A DNA stretch of 64,000 bases from the IMG/VR virus record IMGVR_UViG_3300046517_001279, one strand, 5' to 3'. A program made the position numbers and the translations under genes. How positions within the stretch are numbered: the stretch's first letter is position 1; each line of letters starts with the position of its first letter. The notes beneath the pieces were generated by a model. It made no database searches. It had not been told where the DNA came from and saw only the letters and a program-made list of their open reading frames with translations. Below, piece after piece: positions 2,277-36,335 of this stretch. Origin of the DNA: an uncultured virus (IMG/VR IMGVR_UViG_3300046517_001279). Its lineage: Duplodnaviria; Heunggongvirae; Uroviricota; Caudoviricetes.

Positions 2277-2550
2277 GCTGCTGTTCAAGGAGAGCGCAGC
2301 CAAGGAGTGGAAGAAGCTCGACGGTGACATCCGGAGACAGTTCTCCAGGAAGCTGAACGAGCGACTGGAGAGCCCACGAGTTCCGCACGACGCGCTCCAC
2401 GGTATGAAGGACTGCTACAAAATTAAGCTCCGGACCAAGGGCTATCGGCTCGTGTACCGGGTCGAGGACGAGATCATCACAGTCACCGTGATCGCTGTTG
2501 GCCGACGCGAGGGCGGTGAAGTTTACGAAGAGGCTGCGAAAAGACAATGA
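2266..2550 (+). CDS. relE: RelE/StbE-family mRNA interferase toxin
   Basis: YKLLF..AAKEWKKLD...CYKIKLRTKGYRLVY...VIAVGRRE...VYEEAAKR. Confidence 0.9.
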   Translation: MTYKLLFKESAAKEWKKLDGDIRRQFSRKLNERLESPRVPHDALHGMKDCYKIKLRTKGYRLVYRVEDEIITVTVIAVGRREGGEVYEEAAKRQ

Positions 2551-3959
2551 TGAAAGACCACGAAATCGCTGCGATCGTCAACCAGTTGCGCGACATCGCC
2601 AAAGAGTACGGCCAGACGCAGCAGCTTCGCGAGCGTATCGCTGCGGTTGTCGTGCCGCTCCTTGCAAGCAAACCTGCCGCGCCAATGGATAACGCGTGCG
2701 CGTTGTCTGAAGGCTATCGGCGGGGCCTCATGGAAGCATTTCATGTTGCCAACATGATCCATGCAAACAGACAAGGCAGGACGGCCGAAGAAACATGCGC
2801 ATACCTCGTTCGCCGGTTAGCTGGACTTGCTAACGGCGGCGAGGAGCCTGCCGCGCCAGCGCAATCGGGTGAGCCGGTGGAAGCTGACGTAGTGCCGAAT
2901 GAAATTGCTGAACTTTTGACAGAGCCCTGCTGGAATTTATCCAGGAGGGATGTTTCCGACTTGCTCAAACGCATCGGCTCTATTCTCTACACCGCCCCGC
3001 AACCATCCCAGCCCGCGCAGTCTGGCGACCCAGTATTGCCCGTGTGGTTCGACATGTTCCTGACGAATGTGTGTGAAATCCCCGATCGCAATAGTCCCGA
3101 GGGCGAGCCCGAGGCGATGATCGCCACCGCTGAAGAATTGCGTAACTGTGCTTTGAATGCCATTGAAAATACAGCCGCCAATGCTGGAGATCGTGACGAA
3201 CGCCCAATCAGTCCGGCTGATATTTCGGCGGCGGCTGATGCGGTCCAACGCACTTACGGAGTATCGGGAGATATTGCAGAGCAGATTGCCGTTGCCGTGA
3301 TCGACACCCTGATAGCTCGCGGCAATCATCCGCCCTACTCAGTTCCCTCTGCCGTGGCGCTGGACGATGAGCGGGCGGCGGCGGAATGGGCTCTTTTCGC
3401 GCTTATCCCTTGCGGCCATCATGAATGGGCGCAGCGTCATCGCAAAGTGTTCTCCACCATGTTGGCCCGCGCCGCATCCCCGCAAGCCACGGAAGATACG
3501 CCCGCAAAGTTAGCGCGCGACGCGGTGCGCATGCTCGAAGGCTATGCCGAGTCGTATGAATCGATGGCAAAAATGGATAGCAAGAGTGGCGATGGCACGG
3601 TTCAGTGTCGATCTGTCGCCCGCGACATCCGCGCGAACATGGCTGGCTGGTTCGGCCCGCATCTCACCGTGCAAGCCACGGCGACGCAACCAGCACAGAC
3701 GTCACCCGCGAGAGAGCCCCTTTCCCCGGAAGCTCGCGCCTTCTATGCGAGACATGAGGCACGCATGGGGCGTAGCGGAACCATGCAGCCAGCACAGACG
3801 GAGCGGGCGCTGACGGATGGGACTTGTCAGTGGCGCGAGGAAGAAGGAAATTTTGGCGACAGAATCGTTCGCTGCCTGACTTGCGGAGTTCATCGCAGCA
3901 ATCCATGCCCGAAGTCTCTCGCCGCGCAGCCAGCAAGCGGAGCCGACCATGCACCGTAA
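2547..3959 (+). CDS. modular/mosaic hypothetical protein with repeated QPAQ linkers
   Basis: 470 aa ORF; segments separated by PAQSG(E/D)PV, PQAT and QPAQT linkers. Confidence 0.7.
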   Translation: MMKDHEIAAIVNQLRDIAKEYGQTQQLRERIAAVVVPLLASKPAAPMDNACALSEGYRRGLMEAFHVANMIHANRQGRTAEETCAYLVRRLAGLANGGEEPAAPAQSGEPVEADVVPNEIAELLTEPCWNLSRRDVSDLLKRIGSILYTAPQPSQPAQSGDPVLPVWFDMFLTNVCEIPDRNSPEGEPEAMIATAEELRNCALNAIENTAANAGDRDERPISPADISAAADAVQRTYGVSGDIAEQIAVAVIDTLIARGNHPPYSVPSAVALDDERAAAEWALFALIPCGHHEWAQRHRKVFSTMLARAASPQATEDTPAKLARDAVRMLEGYAESYESMAKMDSKSGDGTVQCRSVARDIRANMAGWFGPHLTVQATATQPAQTSPAREPLSPEARAFYARHEARMGRSGTMQPAQTERALTDGTCQWREEEGNFGDRIVRCLTCGVHRSNPCPKSLAAQPASGADHAP

Positions 3960-4161: not shown

Positions 4162-4391
4162 CCGCACAGGACACGACGGTTTTCGGCTGGACCTACGAAC
4201 AGTGGGTGAAGGCCATCGACTATCAGAACCAGTGCGAGCCAGCGGTCTTTGACGCGCCGACGACTCCGAACGCGTTCGTGGAGGCGCTGAAGGGCGCTAT
4301 CAACGCGCTGAAGTACCTGGCCGAAGTGCAGAGGTTCTGGCGCATGCGAAGGCTCGACCAACCGCTCGAAGTAAGGCTGATCCTGCCGTGA
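4158..4391 (+). CDS. hypothetical protein
   Basis: ATGA coupling, GGGAG RBS. Confidence 0.55.
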   Translation: MTAQDTTVFGWTYEQWVKAIDYQNQCEPAVFDAPTTPNAFVEALKGAINALKYLAEVQRFWRMRRLDQPLEVRLILP

Positions 4392-4576
4392 AAGTCCACG
4401 ACGAGCGCACGCCGATGTTCATTCATGACCAGTGCTACGACACGCCCGCGCTCCTCAAGGAACACGTCGACCTGGCCGCGTCTACGACATGGCACCTGAC
4501 GCAGCCCTCGACATCGATGCTGGGGGAAGCGCTGCGTTTTGGCTTTGTCGTGCTGGCCGCACACGTCGGGCTATAA
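4388..4576 (+). CDS. hypothetical protein
   Basis: GTGA coupling to the previous gene. Confidence 0.45.
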   Translation: MKVHDERTPMFIHDQCYDTPALLKEHVDLAASTTWHLTQPSTSMLGEALRFGFVVLAAHVGL

Positions 4577-4580
4577 AGAT

Positions 4581-4905
4581 TTCGGCCACCATACGCCGAA
4601 GGCCCGCACAGCCTCCAGCCTGTAAACGCTTCGTACAGCCTATTATCTGTATCGACTCTCGACTACACTGGAGTCCCACAAACGGAGGAACGCATGCTGC
4701 TTTACGCAATCCTCCGCTGGCTTCTGTTTCTCTTCAGGCGCGCCGTCCTTGATCGGCCCGGCGCGTTTCAGTGGGCGCGAGCAGCGCCCTCTAAGAACCA
4801 CGAGGCGACGCCTCAACTAAGCCAGCGGCGCGGACAGGGAAAGAGACCCTGAACCCGCGACGGCCGATCATTTACCCATGGAGCCGCCACAGAGCGGCTC
4901 TCTTG
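4581..4905 (+). ncRNA. candidate structured RNA 1 (structured leader or mRNA)
   Basis: Stems TTCGGC/GCCGAA, CTCCAG/CTGGAG, CGGAGGA/TCCTCCG, CCGCTGGCTT/AAGCCAGCGG, TGATCGGCC/GGCCGATCA, GGGCGC/GCGCCC, CAGGG/CCCTG and GAGCCGC/GCGGCTC. Confidence 0.45.
4694..4852 (+). CDS. 52-aa peptide with hydrophobic N-terminus (type I toxin-like)
   Basis: GGAGG at 4684-4688 then ATG; MLLYAILRWLLFLFRRAVLDRPGAFQWARAAPSKNHEATPQLSQRRGQGKRP; below the ORF-track size cut-off. Confidence 0.4.
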   Translation: MLLYAILRWLLFLFRRAVLDRPGAFQWARAAPSKNHEATPQLSQRRGQGKRP

Positions 4906-4936
4906 CATTAAAATCCTCTGTACAACGGTTTTCACG

Positions 4937-4964
4937 TTGCATGAAGCGACAAATCTGGTATAGT
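4937..4964 (+). promoter_or_regulatory. sigma70-like promoter for the ACP gene
   Basis: TTGCAT-16 bp-TATAGT with an extended -10 TG. Confidence 0.55.
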
Positions 4965-4998
4965 TAGACCATTCAAACAAAGCGCCGGGAAGACCACC

Positions 4999-5244
4999 AT
5001 GCCCACCATCGAAGACCGCGTAAAGCACATCATCGCCGACCAGGTTGGCCGCGCCGGAACCGACATCCGCAACGACCAGAATCTCGACAGCGATCTGGAC
5101 CTCGACTCGCTCGATCTGGTCGAGATCGGGATGGGTCTGGAGGAGGAGTTCAATTGTGAGATTCCGGACGAGCGCGCGCTAGGGCTCACCACGGTGCAGT
5201 CTGTGATCGACCTGGTCAACGAATACCAGCCCGCGACGCTGTAA
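4999..5244 (+). CDS. acpP: acyl carrier protein
   Basis: Acidic 81 aa; IEDRVKHIIADQ...DLDLDSLDLVEIGMGLEEEFNCEIPDE...TTVQSVID with the DSL phosphopantetheine serine. Confidence 0.92.
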   Translation: MPTIEDRVKHIIADQVGRAGTDIRNDQNLDSDLDLDSLDLVEIGMGLEEEFNCEIPDERALGLTTVQSVIDLVNEYQPATL

Positions 5245-5265: not shown

Positions 5266-5364
5266 ATGCTTCACAGAAAAGTTCAGCGCCTGTTGACCGG
5301 GTGCATTTTCCTCTCCCTCGCGCTGATGAGCGCGATGGCTTACGCTGCATTTGCGAGATTATGA
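5266..5364 (+). CDS. 32-aa single-TM peptide
   Basis: MLHRKVQRLLTGCIFLSLALMSAMAYAAFARL; fills the gap after ACP, and its stop overlaps the next ATG. Confidence 0.45.
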   Translation: MLHRKVQRLLTGCIFLSLALMSAMAYAAFARL

Positions 5365-9692: not shown

Positions 9693-9695
9693 GCA

Positions 9696-9918
9696 GCGGT
9701 AAGGCAAGACAGAGAACCGGGCACGCGCCCGGTTCCGTTTCGTTAGGATTTCGAATCATTGCAGTCCTAACGAAACGGCGGTATAAATGTGACCGACCAG
9801 CAAGACACCGCATTGCACATGCGGCGCCCGAAGAGGCGACTCCAAGCGGAGCGTGCCGCAGCCCGTAATGTGCTGACGCGGCTAGGGGCGGTCCCCGCCA
9901 AGGGACCGCCCGCTTTTA
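9696..9918 (+). ncRNA. candidate structured RNA 2 ending in an intrinsic terminator
   Basis: 9-bp hairpin 9714-9735, 14-bp perfect hairpin 9735-9778, multibranch domain 9778-9859, 10-bp GC hairpin 9886-9911 followed by TTTT. Confidence 0.5.
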
Positions 9919-9941
9919 CCTTCGGGACCGCTAAATTCCCC

Positions 9942-9969
9942 TTGCGGAAAACTATAAACAGCGTATAGT
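9942..9969 (+). promoter_or_regulatory. sigma70-like promoter
   Basis: TTGCGG-16 bp-TATAGT. Confidence 0.45.
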
Positions 9970-24798: not shown

Positions 24799-25170
24799 AT
24801 GCTTGTATATCTCTGCGGCCCGATTAACGGATGTACCGACGCTGAATGCAATGACTGGCGCTCGTACGTTAAGAGCCGGATGCCGGACACCCTGGACCCG
24901 ATGCGCCGCGATTACCGTGGACGCGAAGCGGAGTCAGTCAACGAGATCGTTGAACTCGACAAGATCGACGTGCAGGAATGCGACGTCGTAATCGCGAATT
25001 GCCCGAAGCCAAGCGTTGGCACCAGCATGGAGGTGTTCTTCGCATGGCAACTCGGCAAGACGGTCGCCGTAGTCGCCCAGGAGCCAGTCAGCCCCTGGTT
25101 GCGCTATCACAGCGCGAAGGTGTTCGGGACGATCAAGGAAGCAGTGGACTGGCTGGAGGCGCGAGATTGA
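24799..25170 (+). CDS. nucleoside 2-deoxyribosyltransferase-like protein
   Basis: VYLCGPI...WR...DP...DKIDVQECDVVIA...SVGTSMEVFFAWQLGK. Confidence 0.8.
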   Translation: MLVYLCGPINGCTDAECNDWRSYVKSRMPDTLDPMRRDYRGREAESVNEIVELDKIDVQECDVVIANCPKPSVGTSMEVFFAWQLGKTVAVVAQEPVSPWLRYHSAKVFGTIKEAVDWLEARD

Positions 25171-26630
25171 TCCACTATCACGGGCTACCCATCACGCCCG
25201 GGACCGCTGCGATCAAGGCCATATTCTGCGGGCACGCGTTCATTTCGTTCCGTCACCCGGAGCAGCTGGGGGTGGCGCTAGAAGTGGTTCAGACTTTCGC
25301 GATCGATAACGGAGCGTTCTCAGCGTGGATGAGCGGGTCACCGATCACCGACTGGAAGCCTTATTACCAGTGGGTCGCGGAGTTACATCGCTACCCGTCT
25401 TTCGACTTTGCGGTAATTCCCGATGTCATTGGGGGAAGTGAAGAAGATAACGACAACCTGATCGAGGAGTGGCCGTGGAAGGATACGGCACCTCATATCG
25501 GAGCACCTGTATGGCACCTTCACGAAAGTCTTGAGCGCCTGCAACGCATGGCTCTGCGCTGGCCTCGCATCTGTATTGGCAGTTCCGGGGAGTTTGCGAC
25601 GGTCGGCACTGAGCAGTGGAACACGCGCATGGCTGAGGCAATGGACGTCATTTGCGATAAGCAGGGACGGCCGGTGTGCAAGATACACGGTCTGCGAATG
25701 CTTAACCCGAAGGTTTTTACTCGGTTCCCGTTTGCAAGCGTGGATAGTACGAATATTGGACGAAACATAGGCATCGACAAGAATTGGAAAGGGACGTACA
25801 CCCCTCCCTCAAAAGAGTCACGTGCGCAGGTCATGCGGGATCGGATCGAGGCGCACCAGGCACCGACTTTTTGGGAGAGGGACAAAACGACTAGCGCTGT
25901 GACTGAGGTTAAGACCGCCCCAGTTGCTCCTAAAAAACGCTCAAAAAAGCCCAAGAAAACAATGGTACGAATCTACATTGCCGATACAGAAACAACGGGG
26001 CTAGACAACGATGCGCGGGTAGTCGAATACGCGCATATCGAATGCACGCTGCAGAACAATCGCCTCGTCGAGCGCAGCCGCTTCGAGACACTCGTGCAGC
26101 CTGGCATCCCGATCCCGGCCGGCGCGACCAAGGTGCACGGCATCACCGACGAAATGGTCAAGACAGCGCCGGCCATCCGCGACATTCTGCCGGCTGCGCT
26201 GAACGTGAAGAAGGGCGAACACATCCAGGTGTTCGGTCACAATTTCCCCAGCTACGACATGAAAATGCTGGACGGTGTCTACCCGAAGGGCATCGACATC
26301 GGCTGCACGCTGAAGGCCGCGCGCGTGTTTATCGAAGCGCCGGGCCACAGCCTCGACAAGTTGCGCGAACACCTGAAGCTGGAGAAGACCGGGCAGGCGC
26401 ACAGCGCGCTGGCCGACTGCCTCGACACGCTGCAGATCATCAATCACATGCTGGCCGATCGCGAGTGGGACGTATTGGAGTCCTGCATGCTCCAGCGCCC
26501 GACGACGATCTCGTTCGGCAAACACAAAGGCAGCAAGCTCGAAGATCTGCCGGATAGCTACGTGCGCTGGCTGCTCGAAGACTGCGACTCAGTTGGTTGG
26601 GAGTTGCGTCAGGTTCTGGAGGCACTGTGA
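25167..26630 (+). CDS. TGT/DpdA-like TIM-barrel domain fused to a DEDDh (ExoX/DnaQ-like) 3'-5' exonuclease
   Basis: TTG start with GGAGG RBS; DNGAFS, IPDVI, PVWH, IHGL, SVDSTN; K-rich linker; then DTETTG, HNFPSYD, HSALAD and FGKHKG...YVRWL. Confidence 0.65.
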   Translation: MIHYHGLPITPGTAAIKAIFCGHAFISFRHPEQLGVALEVVQTFAIDNGAFSAWMSGSPITDWKPYYQWVAELHRYPSFDFAVIPDVIGGSEEDNDNLIEEWPWKDTAPHIGAPVWHLHESLERLQRMALRWPRICIGSSGEFATVGTEQWNTRMAEAMDVICDKQGRPVCKIHGLRMLNPKVFTRFPFASVDSTNIGRNIGIDKNWKGTYTPPSKESRAQVMRDRIEAHQAPTFWERDKTTSAVTEVKTAPVAPKKRSKKPKKTMVRIYIADTETTGLDNDARVVEYAHIECTLQNNRLVERSRFETLVQPGIPIPAGATKVHGITDEMVKTAPAIRDILPAALNVKKGEHIQVFGHNFPSYDMKMLDGVYPKGIDIGCTLKAARVFIEAPGHSLDKLREHLKLEKTGQAHSALADCLDTLQIINHMLADREWDVLESCMLQRPTTISFGKHKGSKLEDLPDSYVRWLLEDCDSVGWELRQVLEAL

Positions 26631-28189: not shown

Positions 28190-31100
28190 ATGCGCATCGC
28201 AAAGCACATAATTTACGACCTGAGCAGCGTGCTCAAGCGCGCTTACTTCGCAGGTATCGATAAGGAATTCGGCTTCCCCGTCACGTTCGAAGAAAAGCAG
28301 GTGCATGTGAACGGATGGGAGTACGGCCGCGAGAATTTCCTGAACAGCGTGCATGCAACGCTGCGGGATCTCAACGCAGCGCCGATGGACGTGATCTTCG
28401 TTCTCGAAGGTAGCCACGGCACCACGATCCGCCGCAATATCCTGCCTCAATACAAGACACGCGCGCCGCGTCCGCAGGAACAACTCGACCAGTACAACAA
28501 GCTGGAACAGTGGGTGCAGACGTTCTTCACGCGCATGGGATCGACGTTCGTGCGTCAGGATGGGTTGGAAGCTGACGATGTTGTCGCGTATCTCGCGCGC
28601 AATTTGAAGGGCGAGCGCGTAGTCGTAATGGACGACGGTGACGCACTTATTCTTGCGCAAGAGCGAGGTGTCACCGTTCGCTACCAGAGCAAGCAAATCA
28701 CGCCGGACGCTGAAAACCCGCTTGGGCCTTTCGCGGTTGAGTTCAATCGCATCTTCAAAGCGATCGTCGGTGATAAGAGCGATACGCTGCCGGGTGCTAA
28801 GGGGGTCGGCGACAGAGGCTTCCTCGACCTGTTCGTGATGTGTGAAGAAGACGGCTTGCGCGCGCTCTCTAAGATCATCGAGGATGGCGATTGGGACCAG
28901 ATCCGCGAGGACGCCAAGCAGGTCAAGGTGCTCCAGAAGATCCTGGACTCGGCGGACACTGTGCGCCGCTGCTGGAAAGCGGCCGGGTTCTTCGACCACC
29001 TCGTCAACGTGCCCGGCAAAAAGCCCGTTTGGCAGCCGGGTATCGTGCTGGAGAAACCAGAAGGCGAAGTGCCCGACGAACGCTGGGATAGATTCTATCA
29101 GCAGCGCCGGATCGTGCACGCCGATAATTTCGCGCAGGTTATGGCTTCAGACATCTGGGCCAAGGTTCGCCAGTCGCGCTGGGTGTCGATCGACCTTGAG
29201 TCCTTCACGCCGCCCGAGAGCGACGAGTGGCTGCGAGCGGTGAACGACCAAAGTGACGACGATGAGCCGAAGGGCATCGATATCCCCGGGCAGATCATCG
29301 CCGGCATGGGCGTGACGTTCGGCTTCAACCAGGAGTTCACGCTCTACTTCACGGTGAACCACGCGACCGACAAGAACATCACGATGGAGCAGCTTTATCT
29401 GTTCCTCGACAAGTTGATCAAGGCCGATCCGGACATCCGTTTCAACGTCCATAATGCGTCGTTCGAACTGGTGGTCTTCTTCAACAATCTGATCAATTAC
29501 ATCGGCGAGAACGAGGCATGGGATTGTGGCTTCCTGCCGCGCATTGACGACACGATCTTTCAGGCCAGCTATGTCGACGAGAACCAGAAGCTCGGCCTGA
29601 AAGCACAGGCGAAGTTGCGTCTGGGCTACGAGCAGGTCACATACGAAGAAGTGACGCAGGGCCGGAAAATGAACGCCCTAACGCCCAAGGAAGTGTTCTC
29701 GTACGGCACAGACGACACAATCGTCACCTCGGCGCTGCGCAATTTTTACCAGATCATCCTCGAACTGGAAAACACGTTCGACCTGTACCGCGACGTCGAG
29801 ATCGACGCTGCGTATCTGGTCGCAGCGGGCATGGTGACCGGCTTCAAGTTCAACCGCGAAACGATGCGCCAACAGGAGCGCGCTGACGACAAGTTGCACG
29901 ACGAAGCGTGGGGCAAAGTGCGCTCGTATCTCGTCGCGCAGAAGTGGGACGGCGTCGAGATGCAGCCGCTCACGCTCGAACCGGCGAGCATGAAGGACAC
30001 GTTCCGGCTCGTGACCGGTCGCGACCTGGAGACGAAGGTCCGCACTCCGTCGAAGATCGTCGACCTGATGCGCGACGAGGACGGCGCCGAAACACTGGCC
30101 GAACTCTACGCGCAGGCCATCGCTGCGAACGGCGATATGCAGCACGTCGAAGCCTACGCGCGCAAGTTCTTCAAGGGCGAGCCCGACCTGAACGTCGATA
30201 GCCCGAAGCAAATGACCCGGCTGCTGTACGAGACGATGGCGCTGCCGATCCGCGTGCGCAACCGACCGACCGCAGCGGACAAGGCCCAGTTCGGCCGTAA
30301 AGCCGAAGGCTCTCCGAAGTCGGACGCACTCGCCATCGCGAGTGCGAAGTTCTACGACGGTGAGACGCATGGCGAGGCTGTGGCGGTGCTCGACGCGCTG
30401 CACACGATGCGCGCTGTCGCCACACGCCGCAAGCTGTTCTACAAGCCGTATCGTTATTTGCAGCACTGGAAAACAGGCCGCATCCACGGCTCTGACGGTC
30501 AGTGCATGACCGCGACGCGCCGTTTCGCGCCGTCGCGCCCCAACAAGGCGCAATGGCCGAAGACCAAGGGTGATTTCCGCCAGAACATCGAGCCGCACCA
30601 CAAGGACGCTGTGGTGGTCGCACTGGACTTCCGGGCGCAGGAGTTGCGCGTTATCGCGGACACGTCGGGCGACCCGGCAATGACGTCGTGCTTCGTGGGC
30701 GAGAATCAGGCCGACATGCATCACCTCACGGGTGTGTCGATCGCGCAGAAGAAGATCGACCCCGCGATGTCGTACGAGGTGTTCGCAGCGGCGATTGACG
30801 ACGTGAGCCACCCTCTGCACAAGCAGATCAAGGCGACGCGCGCCAAGGCGAAGACGACCAACTTCGCGAGCGAGTACGGCGCGCAGGCTCCGAAGATGGC
30901 GCAGACGCTTATGGTGCCCGAGGCCGAGGCGCAGTCGTACCTTGACGCAAAGCACGCGACGTTCTGGATTGCGGAAGAGTGGAAGTCGGAGAAGGTCATC
31001 CCGGCTGCGAAACAGCGCGGCTATGCGCTGACACGTTTGGGCGGCCGGCGCCACCTCGACGAAGCGTTCGCATCGGACGACTGGGGTGTTCGCAGCGGCG

Positions 31101-31456
31101 CTGAGCGGCAGGCTGTGAACTTCGAGATCCAGGGCTCGTGCGCGGAGATGACGAAGAAGGCGATGGGCCGCATCTGGCGCGCGAAACTGCTGGTCCGCTT
31201 CGATGTCGAGTTCATCGCTGTCGTTCATGATGAACTCGTCTTTTCGTGCGGCCGCGAAGACGTTATCGCGTTCACGCAGGAACTGCACGCGCTGATGACG
31301 CAGCGCTATGCCGACATGACGATTCCTATTGAATCGTCGATAGGCCTGGGTCACAATTTCAAGGACTTGATCGAGATCGGCGACCAACCGACGACGGAAG
31401 CGATCAGCGGGGCGCTGCGGAAACTGTTTCCTAAGCACTACGAACTGGCCGCATAA
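28190..31456 (+). CDS. polA: family A DNA polymerase with 5'-3' and 3'-5' exonuclease domains
   Basis: EADDVVA, GDKSDTLPGAKGVG; SIDLES, HNASFE; motif A LDFRAQELR, motif B RAKAKTTNFASEYG, motif C VHDELV. Confidence 0.95.
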   Translation: MRIAKHIIYDLSSVLKRAYFAGIDKEFGFPVTFEEKQVHVNGWEYGRENFLNSVHATLRDLNAAPMDVIFVLEGSHGTTIRRNILPQYKTRAPRPQEQLDQYNKLEQWVQTFFTRMGSTFVRQDGLEADDVVAYLARNLKGERVVVMDDGDALILAQERGVTVRYQSKQITPDAENPLGPFAVEFNRIFKAIVGDKSDTLPGAKGVGDRGFLDLFVMCEEDGLRALSKIIEDGDWDQIREDAKQVKVLQKILDSADTVRRCWKAAGFFDHLVNVPGKKPVWQPGIVLEKPEGEVPDERWDRFYQQRRIVHADNFAQVMASDIWAKVRQSRWVSIDLESFTPPESDEWLRAVNDQSDDDEPKGIDIPGQIIAGMGVTFGFNQEFTLYFTVNHATDKNITMEQLYLFLDKLIKADPDIRFNVHNASFELVVFFNNLINYIGENEAWDCGFLPRIDDTIFQASYVDENQKLGLKAQAKLRLGYEQVTYEEVTQGRKMNALTPKEVFSYGTDDTIVTSALRNFYQIILELENTFDLYRDVEIDAAYLVAAGMVTGFKFNRETMRQQERADDKLHDEAWGKVRSYLVAQKWDGVEMQPLTLEPASMKDTFRLVTGRDLETKVRTPSKIVDLMRDEDGAETLAELYAQAIAANGDMQHVEAYARKFFKGEPDLNVDSPKQMTRLLYETMALPIRVRNRPTAADKAQFGRKAEGSPKSDALAIASAKFYDGETHGEAVAVLDALHTMRAVATRRKLFYKPYRYLQHWKTGRIHGSDGQCMTATRRFAPSRPNKAQWPKTKGDFRQNIEPHHKDAVVVALDFRAQELRVIADTSGDPAMTSCFVGENQADMHHLTGVSIAQKKIDPAMSYEVFAAAIDDVSHPLHKQIKATRAKAKTTNFASEYGAQAPKMAQTLMVPEAEAQSYLDAKHATFWIAEEWKSEKVIPAAKQRGYALTRLGGRRHLDEAFASDDWGVRSGAERQAVNFEIQGSCAEMTKKAMGRIWRAKLLVRFDVEFIAVVHDELVFSCGREDVIAFTQELHALMTQRYADMTIPIESSIGLGHNFKDLIEIGDQPTTEAISGALRKLFPKHYELAA

Positions 31457-31483
31457 TTCACACGGTATCGGGGGACCATAAAA

Positions 31484-31750
31484 ATGCCAGACGTAGCAGA
31501 CGACGCAGCCCAGACAATCGAACTGGAGTTGCAGGCGCGTATCTCAGCGGTGCGCAAACACACGGGGCAGCACTTGGTGCCCAAGGTTAACGAACGCACG
31601 GGAAAGATCGTTTGCCACAACTGCGACTGTGAAATCGCGCCGGGTAAGCTGTTCTGCGACCCTCTGCCTGCCGACCCGAACAAGCCGCGTAAGACGGAAA
31701 TTTCGGAGTGCCAAGAGGATTATGAAAACCGGATGAGGCGATCAGCATAA
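31484..31750 (+). CDS. TraR/DksA-like C4 zinc-finger protein
   Basis: N-terminal DVADDA; CHNC...FC...ECQEDYE. Confidence 0.7.
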   Translation: MPDVADDAAQTIELELQARISAVRKHTGQHLVPKVNERTGKIVCHNCDCEIAPGKLFCDPLPADPNKPRKTEISECQEDYENRMRRSA

Positions 31751-32037
31751 TGGGAATGATCAGCATATGGGACGGCGAGGATCTGCCGCCTCTCGGGTGC
31801 GACGTGCTGATCGAGCACGGTAACCTGGAGCACGCGGTGTGCACCGTTACCGGCTACTCGGTCCGTCCGTCGCTGCACGGCAACAAGTTTGAGCACCGCA
31901 TCGACGTGAACCTGCTCTACAAGGACACGACAACCACGAACCAACGGCTGCTGTGCGATGTGCGTCCACTCCACAAACCTTTCGAGAAACGCGATGAGCG
32001 AGCAAAGCGAGTACCCAAGAAAGCGCCCGCCGCCTGA
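31750..32037 (+). CDS. hypothetical protein
   Basis: TAATG coupling. Confidence 0.55.
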   Translation: MGMISIWDGEDLPPLGCDVLIEHGNLEHAVCTVTGYSVRPSLHGNKFEHRIDVNLLYKDTTTTNQRLLCDVRPLHKPFEKRDERAKRVPKKAPAA

Positions 32038-32251
32038 CACAGGCCCAGAAGCGCCCGTACAGGCCGCCGTGAAGGTCGGGCAGGTGTGGGAGGAGGCAGA
32101 CCCACGCGGCGGCCGCACGGTGACCGTCACGGCCGTTTTGGGGAGTTCCGTGACGGTGCGCAGCGCTGGGGCGAGTCCGCAGATCTACGCGTCGAACCTC
32201 AGCCACTTCGGATCGCTGAACGGGTACCGACTGGTGGAGGACGTCAAATGA
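31994..32251 (+). CDS. hypothetical protein
   Basis: VKVGQVWEEADPR; coupled to the next gene. Confidence 0.5.
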   Translation: MSEQSEYPRKRPPPDTGPEAPVQAAVKVGQVWEEADPRGGRTVTVTAVLGSSVTVRSAGASPQIYASNLSHFGSLNGYRLVEDVK

Positions 32252-32382
32252 AGATGACCATAAAAGCGCTCATTACGTTCCCGGTCTGTCCGCCGTTGGT
32301 GTGCGTAGGACTGCTTGCCTACAGCGCCGAGCAGATCTGCAGCCACGCGCTCGACCGCATCAACGACTGGATCGAAAAATGA
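32248..32382 (+). CDS. small hydrophobic protein
   Basis: GGAGG RBS; ATGA coupling at both ends. Confidence 0.45.
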   Translation: MKMTIKALITFPVCPPLVCVGLLAYSAEQICSHALDRINDWIEK

Positions 32383-34107: not shown

Positions 34108-35622
34108 ATGATCGTAGAAGAAGAACAGGTCGCTGCGCGCAGCGAGACCATTACGCTCAACGAGGACCAGCAGGCCGCGTATGACGCGATCATGGCGTGG
34201 CTTGAGGCGCGCGACCCGCGTGTGAAGCGGGCGGATGGGATTGAGCTTCGCTACAAGAAGCCGAAGTTCAAATTGCCGGAAGGGGCGGAGGAATGGTTTC
34301 AAGATAAACCGGACGATTTTTTCGTGCTCAAGGGCTATGCGGGCGTGGGCAAGACGTATCTGACTGCTAAGGTTATCTTGGACCTCAGCGAGCGGGACTG
34401 GAACATGGTGGTTTGCGCACCCACCTTGAAGGCGGTAGGCGTCATCCAGGAGAAGGTACGGGAGGCTGCGCAGGACCGCGTACTTGCAGCAACTTTTAAG
34501 TCTGTCCATTCCGTCTGCGGCCTTCGTCTTGTCGAGACGGATGAGGGCGATCACGTGGTGACGGACACCGGCATGGGCAGCCTAGACCAGTTCAACCTCT
34601 GCGTTATCGACGAGGGAAGCATGCTTGATTCGTCGACACTGCTGCGGTCGGTGCAGCGCATGCGCGGCCAATGCTTGATCCTGATTATCGGAGATCCCGC
34701 GCAACTCCCGCCTATCGTGGAAAAGTCGGTCGCCAAAGTGTTCCGTCTCCCACAGGGCGCGATGCTCAGTAAGGTGACGCGTCAGGCCGAGGGCAACCCG
34801 CTGATCGCAGCGTCTATGAAGATCCGCGAGCGCAACCGCGTGGATGATCTGCTTGATGGTGAGTCTGACGATTTCTTTGCGGGCTTCGGTGCAGACGATC
34901 GCATGCAGGCGTCCGAATTAATGGGGTTGCTGCCGGAATCAATGGTTCGCGGCAGCAAGAGCCTGGTCGATATGTGTATCGACTACCAACGCCAAGGCGT
35001 TGACGCACGTATCGTGGCGTACCGTAACTCGACAGTGCTTCGCTGCAACGAGATCATTCACCACGCACTGTATCCGGAAGCAGGGCGCGTGCCGTTCGCG
35101 CCGGGCGAGCGCGTGATCATTCAATCGGCGTGCAAGGCCGAAAGTCTCGACACAGGCAAGACTGTCGATCTGGCGACGAGTGAGGAACTCGTCGTGGAGT
35201 ACATCGAGCGCGATGACCACCCGTCGTATCCCGGCGTCAAGGCATACATGCTGGTGATGAAGGATGACCTAGGCAACCTAGTCAAGGTCTATACGCCGAC
35301 GCTCATGACCGCGTTCAAGCACCGCTGCAGCGAACTGTTCGATGATGTCAACGCCATTAACCGGCAGTTGAAGCGCGGCCCTGACGCGAAACTGTACGAC
35401 AGACTGAAGCTGGCTCGCGGCGCTGCGTGGGGGTTCAAGTCGGCGTTCGCTGAGGTAAGACACTGTTTCGCGATCACGTCGCACAAGAGTCAGGGGAGTT
35501 CGTTTGACGTCGTCTTGGTCGATCTGCCTGATCTGATGACGATTCAGTCGAGTTTCGAGTTCAATTGCTCGTTGTACGTCAGCGTCACTCGTCCGCGCTT
35601 GCGCGCACACATCGCTTATTAA
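34108..35622 (+). CDS. Dda/RecD-like SF1B helicase
   Basis: GYAGVGKT, IDEGSM, GDPAQLPP, TRQA, AITSHKSQGS, YVSVTRP. Confidence 0.9.
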   Translation: MIVEEEQVAARSETITLNEDQQAAYDAIMAWLEARDPRVKRADGIELRYKKPKFKLPEGAEEWFQDKPDDFFVLKGYAGVGKTYLTAKVILDLSERDWNMVVCAPTLKAVGVIQEKVREAAQDRVLAATFKSVHSVCGLRLVETDEGDHVVTDTGMGSLDQFNLCVIDEGSMLDSSTLLRSVQRMRGQCLILIIGDPAQLPPIVEKSVAKVFRLPQGAMLSKVTRQAEGNPLIAASMKIRERNRVDDLLDGESDDFFAGFGADDRMQASELMGLLPESMVRGSKSLVDMCIDYQRQGVDARIVAYRNSTVLRCNEIIHHALYPEAGRVPFAPGERVIIQSACKAESLDTGKTVDLATSEELVVEYIERDDHPSYPGVKAYMLVMKDDLGNLVKVYTPTLMTAFKHRCSELFDDVNAINRQLKRGPDAKLYDRLKLARGAAWGFKSAFAEVRHCFAITSHKSQGSSFDVVLVDLPDLMTIQSSFEFNCSLYVSVTRPRLRAHIAY

Positions 35623-35624
35623 TC

Positions 35625-36335
35625 ATGGGCCACAGTACGAAAAAGATTGAAGTCGAAGTTGGCTCGCGGTTTCACCGCTTAGTAGTCTTAAAAGAGGTTG
35701 ATAGGCTCAGCGGGGTGCCCCGCCGCAGGTTCCTTTGCAGGTGCGATTGCGGAGAATTGCTGGCTGCGCCCCTCGACAGTCTACGAACGGGCAACACGAA
35801 ATCGTGCGGGTGTCTAAAGATGGACAAGATCTTGGCGCGGTCCACATCGCACGGGCTGAGGCACCACCCGGCGTACCACAGTTGGAACGCCATGATGGGC
35901 CGCTGCTTCAACCCCAAGAATCGGGGCTACCGCAGGTACGGTGGTCGCGGAATTACGGTGTGTGAGCGTTGGCGGGATGTAAGGCTGTTTATTGCGGACA
36001 TGGGCGAGTCTCATTCCCCGGGGCTCACGCTGGAGCGCGAGGACGTTGACGGCAACTATGGCCCCGGAAACGTAATTTGGGCGACTCAGAAAGTACAGAA
36101 CAGGAACATCCATCGGCGCCGTGATAACACGAGTGGCCGATCCGGCGTGCTCAAGTCGCGCGGAGCCCGAGGATCTCACTACTGGCTGGCGCGATGGATA
36201 GCATCGGATGGTACCAAGTATCAAAGGTCATTTTCAATTTTGAAGTACGGCAACGACGAGGCGTATCGACGCGCTTGCGAAGTGCGAGACGCCCAGTTTA
36301 AACAACATGGCTACTCAGACAAACACGGAAAATAA
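35625..36335 (+). mobile_element. free-standing HNH homing endonuclease with AP2-like C-terminus
   Basis: CRCDCG, KSCGC, YGGRGITVCERW, TLEREDVDGNYGPGNVIWAT..QNRN; NTSG..GV...FSILKYG. Confidence 0.85.

Follow-up and report, generated by a model that had tools for sequence, protein, structure and literature searches.

A predicted 325-nt folded RNA masks the ribosome-binding site of a small hydrophobic reading frame in a soil phage

The locus and its relatives

The DNA analysed here (the window, 64,000 nucleotides) makes up most of a 71-kb contig of a soil tailed phage. It carries lambda-type tail genes together with genes for DNA polymerase, helicase, primase, ligase, SbcCD and thymidylate synthase, and a Tgt-like gene. 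The element under study is 325 nt long (4581–4905) and lies between a small gene and the conserved promoter of an acyl carrier protein (ACP) gene. It starts 4 nt past the stop codon of a 62-aa open reading frame (ORF; 4388–4576) and contains a 52-aa ORF (4694–4852, + strand) that is separated from its neighbours by 117 nt upstream and 146 nt downstream. A 117-nt gap ahead of an ATG is unusual within this run of overlapping genes, which also includes a type II toxin–antitoxin pair. The right boundary is marked by the promoter TTGCAT-16-TATAGT (4937–4964, + strand), which is conserved in the clade and drives the downstream genes; the ACP gene (4999–5244, + strand) lies outside the element behind this promoter of its own. 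A contig from a public run, which may be the source sample, spans 4349–5015 and thus both boundaries with zero differences and offers no covariation.

The core promoter at 4937–4964 is kept in relatives and is repeated along their early regions. A scan for it recovered two syntenic metagenome loci (L209 and L214). In these and in a third relative (G001), the same promoter precedes the ACP gene and a protein-coding ORF ends 12–55 nt upstream of it. Because the 325-nt element is absent from the syntenic site in all three relatives, it is an accessory insert.

ACP genes lie behind the same promoter in four related phages (window 4999–5244, L209 3316–3531, L214 1052–1300 and L181 1480–1794), and each adjoins tiny hydrophobic ORFs; the phage ACP has only two matches among annotated phage records. 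A 32-aa hydrophobic ORF follows the ACP gene in the window (5266–5364) and has a look-alike in L209 (4066–4167).

No close cultured relative of the phage was found. Relatives of its helicase show 50–87% identity (74–87% for the closest), several of them on contigs of 84–95 kb. A promoter-like site followed by the type II pair, a Phd/YefM antitoxin and a RelE/ParE toxin, occupies 1967–2550. The host is probably a member of the Burkholderiaceae, because at the DNA level the antitoxin–toxin pair matches Caballeronia replicons best (72% over 84% of the query). Among the relatives, G002 is a complete one with a helicase at 57%; it carries ParA, a repeat array and a Rep3 initiator (L187 1104–3337) and is a phage-plasmid. 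A tyrosine integrase was found in none of four records and Rep3 in none of five other relatives, and the window proteins that were scanned yielded neither a Rep nor a Par gene. The G002 genes and the lack of a tyrosine integrase in the four records indicate that at least part of the group replicates as plasmids. Toxin–antitoxin genes are described as frequent on phage-plasmids (PMC7969092).

Strength of the fold

The original prediction placed a structured RNA at this site, and the element does fold better than shuffled sequence: the + strand reaches −130.6 kcal/mol (z −4.33), with none of 100 shuffles as good. The − strand reaches z −3.93, again with 0 of 100 shuffles as good, and the two values are so similar that they favour neither strand. 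The signal is spread across the element, with z −3.86 when the two end hairpins are removed, −3.94 for the core (4714–4872) and −3.02 for the leader; three consecutive 120-nt tiles give −4.5, −2.3 and −2.5. The further local hairpins that had been claimed are also there, nine being found against 3.8 expected (as many in 17 of 1,000 shuffles). Taken singly, the features of the fold are modestly rare. Two helices of at least 9 bp occur in 18 of 1,000 shuffles. The geometry of a loop-to-strand pseudoknot occurs in 969 of 56,514 shuffles (1.7%) and in 9 of 196 window tiles, the element counted among them.

Ranked by z, the element is second of the 196 tiles of 325 nt in the window. Given the spread of these tiles (mean −0.49, sd 1.38), the best tile of any such window reaches about the z of the element anyway, and two other tiles fold about as well (z −4.5 and −4.2, the latter inside a kinase gene). 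Controls on the coding region are sharper. Of 400 codon shuffles that keep the peptide and its codons, only 1 folds the ORF as well, and the same control applied to 10 neighbouring genes gives z from −1.4 to +1.3. Synonymous recodings matched for GC fold as well in 0 of 250 cases for the ORF and in 17 of 250 for the whole element; unmatched recodings, which have higher GC, do so in 110 of 300. We consider it likely that RNA structure is under selection in the element.

Predicted architecture of the RNA

At the 5′ end is a hairpin, H0 (4581–4600, + strand). Just downstream lies an upstream anti-Shine–Dalgarno (anti-SD) sequence, CCTCC (4612–4616, + strand), which is masked by a leader domain (4613–4673, + strand) closed by CTCCAG/CTGGAG with a pair probability of about 0.7–0.9. 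The SD sequence GGAGGA (4684–4689, + strand), whose GGAGG ends 5 nt ahead of the ATG at 4694, is paired in every modelled form. It is part of CGGAGGA (4683–4689), which pairs with a second anti-SD, TCCTCCG, in codons 6–8 of the ORF (4710–4716, + strand; inner 6 bp, pair probability 0.5–0.95).

Within the coding region a 10-bp long-range helix (4714–4828, + strand) joins CCGCTGGCTT (4714–4723) to AAGCCAGCGG (4819–4828) and closes a three-hairpin junction (4737–4767, 4773–4789 and 4802–4814); its inner 7–8 bp have probabilities of ~0.95–1.0. A 9-bp loop-to-strand pseudoknot (4750–4870, + strand), which is beyond the nested folding model, would pair TGATCGGCC in a loop of the junction (4750–4758) with GGCCGATCA in the 3′ untranslated region (UTR; 4862–4870), with a duplex energy of −15.8 kcal/mol. 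The 3′ strand of this pseudoknot has an alternative partner at 4582–4587. Folding predicts a two-stem hairpin over the stop codon (4829–4859, + strand). The element closes with a 3′ terminal hairpin (4881–4900, + strand; stem 4881–4887/4894–4900), which has a probability of ~1.0 in every span that contains it and, with its tail TCTTGCATT, is a probable weak terminator, although the terminator scan made no call. All the sequences named in the original prediction, including this terminal hairpin, lie where it had placed them.

Masking of the Shine–Dalgarno sequence

The original prediction described a switch, in which the SD helix buries the ATG and the overlapping 10-bp helix frees the SD. Sequestration of the SD is borne out, its core being unpaired with a probability of at most 0.15 in all eight + strand spans folded. 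The other two parts are not. The ATG sits in the hairpin loop, outside the stem (A4694 unpaired 0.96), and the 10-bp helix shares just CCG (4714–4716) with the SD helix. The minimum free energy structure contains both, with 6 bp of the SD helix and 8 bp of the 10-bp helix, and leaves the SD core paired. Either helix can be imposed in full at a cost of 0 to 1.8 kcal/mol. Imposing the full 10-bp helix does not alter the energy (−130.8), and GGAGG then takes CCTCC at 4612–4616 as its partner, a pairing that has a probability of 0.04–0.17 in spans containing this upstream anti-SD. The observation therefore holds for its sequences, its coordinates and a fold above chance, and fails for the burial of the ATG and for a helix that frees the SD.

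Folds of the growing transcript show the SD caught on emergence by CCTCC 4612–4616, with the in-ORF anti-SD taking over after codon 8. Opening of the ribosome-binding site (RBS) costs ~13 kcal/mol until position 4825 and ~9 kcal/mol once the 10-bp helix is complete. No activatable conformer was seen in any of 32 truncations (RBS opening 5.9–9.9 kcal/mol) under a model that excludes pseudoknots and standby loading, and opening still costs 8.4 kcal/mol with the leader blocked as it would be by an antisense RNA. Because opening stays costly in all modelled forms, in the truncations and under the leader block, the element as modelled would be a lock and not a switch. The degree of RBS occlusion is unexceptional, since 4 of 17 neighbouring starts are costlier to open.

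The encoded peptide

The 52-aa peptide has a predicted hydrophobic helix at residues 2–20, with Arg at positions 8, 15 and 16, and a disordered polar tail. The hydrophobic N terminus that had been claimed is present (19-residue hydropathy 1.62), and AlphaFold, run without an alignment, gives the helix a pLDDT of 80–90 and the tail low confidence. Type I toxins are expected to have fewer than 70 aa, a transmembrane helix and a polar C terminus (PMC2887945); here the length is 52 aa, the hydropathy of 1.62 lies at the threshold in a helix that includes Arg, and the polar tail is long. The hydrophobic run has only 14 residues and is interrupted by an Arg, and the 36-residue tail uses rare codons. 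The codon score of the ORF is −0.09 per codon, compared with +0.11 to +0.33 for most neighbours and 0.01–0.02 for two of them.

An SD followed by an ATG and a hydrophobic ORF arises, on either strand, in 0.11% (any SD) or 0.03% (GGAGG) of 20,000 shuffles. The thresholds were set post hoc at the observed values, so we read the chance of this combination as 0.1–1%. Tiny hydrophobic ORFs are common in the phage group, and relatives have several of 29–40 aa around the ACP gene; a real peptide therefore need not be a toxin.

Of the earlier interpretation, then, an above-chance folded RNA, a sequestered SD and a hydrophobic N terminus stand. The specific switch mechanism does not, and both of the readings that were offered, a type I toxin-like locus or a non-coding RNA (ncRNA) with an incidental ORF, stay live.

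Transcription and the antisense strand

The promoter scan found no promoter of the element's own, and the nearest upstream promoter-like site is at 1967, ahead of the type II pair. No convincing antisense promoter was found either, the candidates being at chance level. A weak divergent candidate, GTGAAA-17-TTTAAT (4907–4935, − strand; score 8.6), would start an antisense RNA at ~4900, the first base of the right hairpin; 133 site–spacer combinations in the window score 8 or more, which puts this candidate at chance level. A lone −10-like hexamer, GATAAT, without a −35 (4642–4647, − strand; score 7.2, chance level) would yield an antisense RNA of ~62 nt that covers the leader side.

Read on the − strand, H0 is a terminator-like site followed by a U-rich run, ATCTTTAT. 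In the modelled − strand RNA a G·U-rich 10-bp hairpin (4619–4595) outcompetes H0 and stops the terminator from forming, and the ends pair in a closing long-range 5′–3′ helix with a probability of ~1.0. The − strand is also G-rich, since the + strand is, narrowly, the most C-skewed of 133 tiles (−0.141 versus −0.138); structured RNAs tend to be G-rich. At another locus found by the same promoter pattern (L213), opposite-strand genes lie immediately upstream of the promoter. These points keep a − strand ncRNA alive and do not establish it.

Searches for homologues

The element has no hit in Rfam at the gathering thresholds, and one chance hit at E 2.3 is the only one at E up to 10; ARAGORN found no tRNA or tmRNA in it. 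No true match was obtained by blastn against phages or Escherichia coli genomes, and ten hits at E 1–4 against plasmids are at chance level. Three DNA patterns recovered 61, 0 and 114 loci in viral contigs, none of them similar to the element by blastn or nhmmer; a covariance model of the core was applied to 59 loci of the first set and 41 of the third, with a best E of 0.71. Two single-sequence covariance models run on 52, 44 and 4 sequence sources and 30 virus records gave a best E of 0.075, at L213, which proved to be coding sequence. Among 21 genomes of an unrelated phylum there was one 39-nt match. Scans of viral contigs with ACP and helicase patterns were empty, and a metallophosphoesterase scan returned non-syntenic phages only. 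No RNA data set carrying the element was listed.

The full peptide has no match in Pfam, NCBIfam or PHROGs. The protein search gave no candidate homologue, the peptide is absent from the protein collection and it has no Atlas match; its sole genome match (L217) is out of frame inside a large gene. The proteins scanned include no reverse transcriptase, IscB/TnpB, recombinase or RNA-guided nuclease as a possible partner.

Neither RNA nor peptide profiles matched a named type I family, riboswitches, ribozymes, c4, HEARO, RNase P or tmRNA. Cobalamin riboswitches, RNase P, and HDV-like and twister-sister ribozymes were rejected on their motifs. Group I introns are marked by a P4–P6 domain, a bulged P7 within the P3/P7 pseudoknot and an interrupted gene; the crossing order here is similar, but only 26 nt stand at the position of P4–P6, the 9-bp helix is unbulged and no gene is split. 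Hammerhead ribozymes are marked by CUGANGA, stem II, GAAA and an NUH site; the − strand has CUGAAGA and then GAAAC (4737–4726), but it lacks stem II and has no NUH ahead of stem I. A CsrA sponge was rejected because the GGA motifs sit in stems, and inspection by eye revealed no target duplication of the kind expected of a MITE.

Word searches of the literature listed nothing on the element; supplementary tables of predicted RNAs could bear on its novelty. The available portion of bioRxiv 10.64898/2026.09.22.753630 holds nothing that matches. The element is a single unreplicated sequence, and as such a lead and not a discovery.

Comparison with known systems

Large ornate phage-associated ncRNAs and the omega/HEARO RNAs share the size class of the element, its multi-branch fold and its loop-to-strand pseudoknot. 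Unlike them, the element has no Rfam match, no tRNA and no RNA-guided nuclease among the proteins scanned.

Among small-peptide mRNAs, aapA3/IsoA3 of Helicobacter pylori forms successive metastable anti-SD hairpins during transcription and yields an inert full-length mRNA, according to the available text of PMC6733600. Like aapA3, the element has an upstream anti-SD and then a second one, an untranslatable full-length RNA as predicted, and possible 5′–3′ pairing. The SD of aapA3 is masked by the long-distance pairing itself, and trimming of the 3′ end activates that mRNA, whereas in the model the RBS of the element stays closed after 3′ or 5′ truncation; neither sequence similarity nor an antisense RNA was found. 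The sequestered SD and untranslatable primary mRNA given in that source as a type I hallmark are found here by computation. The timP/TimR system of enterobacteria combines a pseudoknot with a competing long-range helix in a small-peptide mRNA (PMC13000454, available text). The element likewise combines these two features with an SD hairpin, and in both RNAs one strand has a choice of mutually exclusive partners. In timP the pseudoknot and activating helix are 5′ UTR features that free the SD, whereas the element has its pseudoknot and long-range helix in the coding region and 3′ UTR; its competing helix removes only three of the seven SD pairs. As described in PMC4825925, the Gifsy-1 isrK–orf45 leader is, like the element, phage-borne and would share with it a read-through transcript and fold-silenced translation; unlike that leader, the element has no coupled downstream gene, and a separate promoter follows its terminal hairpin.

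Type I systems are reported to be hard to find by homology (PMC12390103, PMC2887945). One published search filter asked for more than 400 nt upstream and more than 250 nt downstream to the flanking genes (PMC2887945), and the gaps of 117 and 146 nt here fall short of it. An antisense RNA with its own promoter and terminator is given as a type I feature (PMC12390103); in the element the terminator-like site is outcompeted in folding and the promoters are at chance level. By analogy, the element would work like a silenced type I toxin mRNA, a likeness that does not establish membership of the class.

Interpretation

Our best reading, which we hold tentatively, is that the element is an accessory, translationally locked, type I toxin-like cassette. 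It would form the 3′-terminal part of an early transcript from the + strand and encode a small membrane-active peptide silenced by the fold of its own mRNA. Judging from sequence and computed folds, the SD in the nascent RNA would be caught by CCTCC 4612–4616 and then by TCCTCCG in codons 6–8, after which the coding region would form the three-hairpin junction, whose loop could lock onto the 3′ UTR and leave the full-length RNA untranslatable. Transcription would arrive by read-through from upstream and end at 4881–4900. Activation may require processing, or a slow refolding that lies outside the model, and a − strand antisense RNA ending at the hairpin 4600–4581 may block it. Once made, the N-terminal helix would enter the inner membrane, and the purpose could be addiction or competitor exclusion in a phage clade that includes plasmid-replicating members. 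We prefer this reading because the combination of SD, ATG and hydrophobic ORF is rare in shuffles; because two successive anti-SDs leave the SD never free; because the ORF fold beats codon shuffles and GC-matched recodings; because the peptide has a predicted helix at residues 2–20; because a terminator-like site lies at the left end on the − strand and the element is absent from three of three relatives; and because a type II pair is nearby, G002 has plasmid genes and none of four records has a tyrosine integrase. Against it stand the short Arg-interrupted run, the rare-codon tail, the low codon score and the lack of an own promoter; the chance-level antisense promoters, the missing terminator hairpin in the modelled antisense RNA and the absence of an active conformer; and the unexceptional RBS occlusion, the short gaps to flanking genes, the lack of a peptide homologue, of Rep3 in five of five other relatives and of a Rep or Par gene among the window proteins scanned.

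It is also possible, if less so, that the element is an orphan structured ncRNA of ~325 nt with a multi-branch core and the 9-bp pseudoknot, and that a GGAGG/CCUCC helix and a pyrimidine linker give rise to the SD and ORF as by-products. Such an RNA may be read from the − strand, from ~4900 at the divergent promoter to the U-tract at 4573–4580, closed by the 5′–3′ helix, and would serve as a scaffold or decoy for a protein of the host or of a rival phage. The structure extends through and past the ORF, the helices use all codon positions and the tail codons are rare; the G-rich − strand, its closing helix, a promoter candidate whose RNA would begin with the first base of the 4900 hairpin, and the gene arrangement at L213 fit the − strand version. 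This account requires the 0.1–1% coincidence of SD, ATG and hydrophobic run, similar z values favour neither strand, its promoter is at chance level, no partner protein was found among those scanned and there is no Rfam match. A plainer account, which we think unlikely, is that two terminator hairpins flank either a decaying insert or a small hydrophobic early gene of the ordinary kind, whose internal fold is incidental and was singled out as the extreme of a window scan. The small hydrophobic ORFs around the ACP gene in relatives, the two other tiles at z −4.5 and −4.2, the pseudoknot pattern in 9 of 196 tiles and the recodings that fold as well (110 of 300 unmatched, with higher GC; 17 of 250 GC-matched for the whole element) agree with it. 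The fold signal, which stays at about −3 to −3.9 when the parts are taken singly or the end hairpins removed, the codon shuffles (1 of 400 as good, unlike all 10 neighbours) and the unusual 117-nt gap argue against it. It is highly improbable that the element is a cis attenuator in the style of phage leader RNAs, in which translation of the ORF or loop–3′ strand pairing would set termination at 4881–4900 against read-through into the ACP run. The 3′ strand of the pseudoknot does lie 10 nt ahead of the terminal hairpin and weak alternative pairings to that hairpin exist, but the hairpin forms with a probability of ~1.0 in all spans containing it, and the ACP genes are served by a strong promoter of their own and do without the insert in three of three relatives.

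The element could represent an undescribed class of phage RNA module, a suggestion that we regard as somewhat doubtful: a ~325-nt fold in which a 9-bp pseudoknot ties an in-ORF three-hairpin junction to the 3′ end. Such a module would either control a new toxin family that lacks a classical antisense partner or travel as a free ncRNA in a mobile cassette behind phage promoters. If it is a toxin family, its occurrence on a phage or phage-plasmid of Burkholderiaceae type and the placing of its control elements within the coding region and 3′ UTR would extend the known hosts and mechanisms; if it is an ncRNA, it would be a new pseudoknotted phage RNA.

Other features of the window

A second strongly folded gap (9693–9945, z −6.0) contains a long hairpin together with a promoter-like site at 9759 and a clade promoter at 9942. 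Its sequence differs in relatives and it looks like a terminator–promoter module; self-BLAST ruled it out as a second copy of the element. At 2547–3959 lies a mosaic 470-aa frame with short internal repeats, and public contigs skip 83–292 bases between its repeats. In a single 550-aa frame (24978–26630), a half that resembles queuine tRNA-ribosyltransferase is fused to a DNA polymerase exonuclease subunit; among the matches shown, relatives align to the second half only, and the fusion suggests 7-deazaguanine DNA modification. An HNH endonuclease gene (35565–36335) has a homologue at another site and in the other orientation in G001 and is probably mobile. Origin-like arrays of palindromic repeats, different in each relative, are present in G001 (31371–32262), G004 (29150–29950) and G002 (80000–80450).
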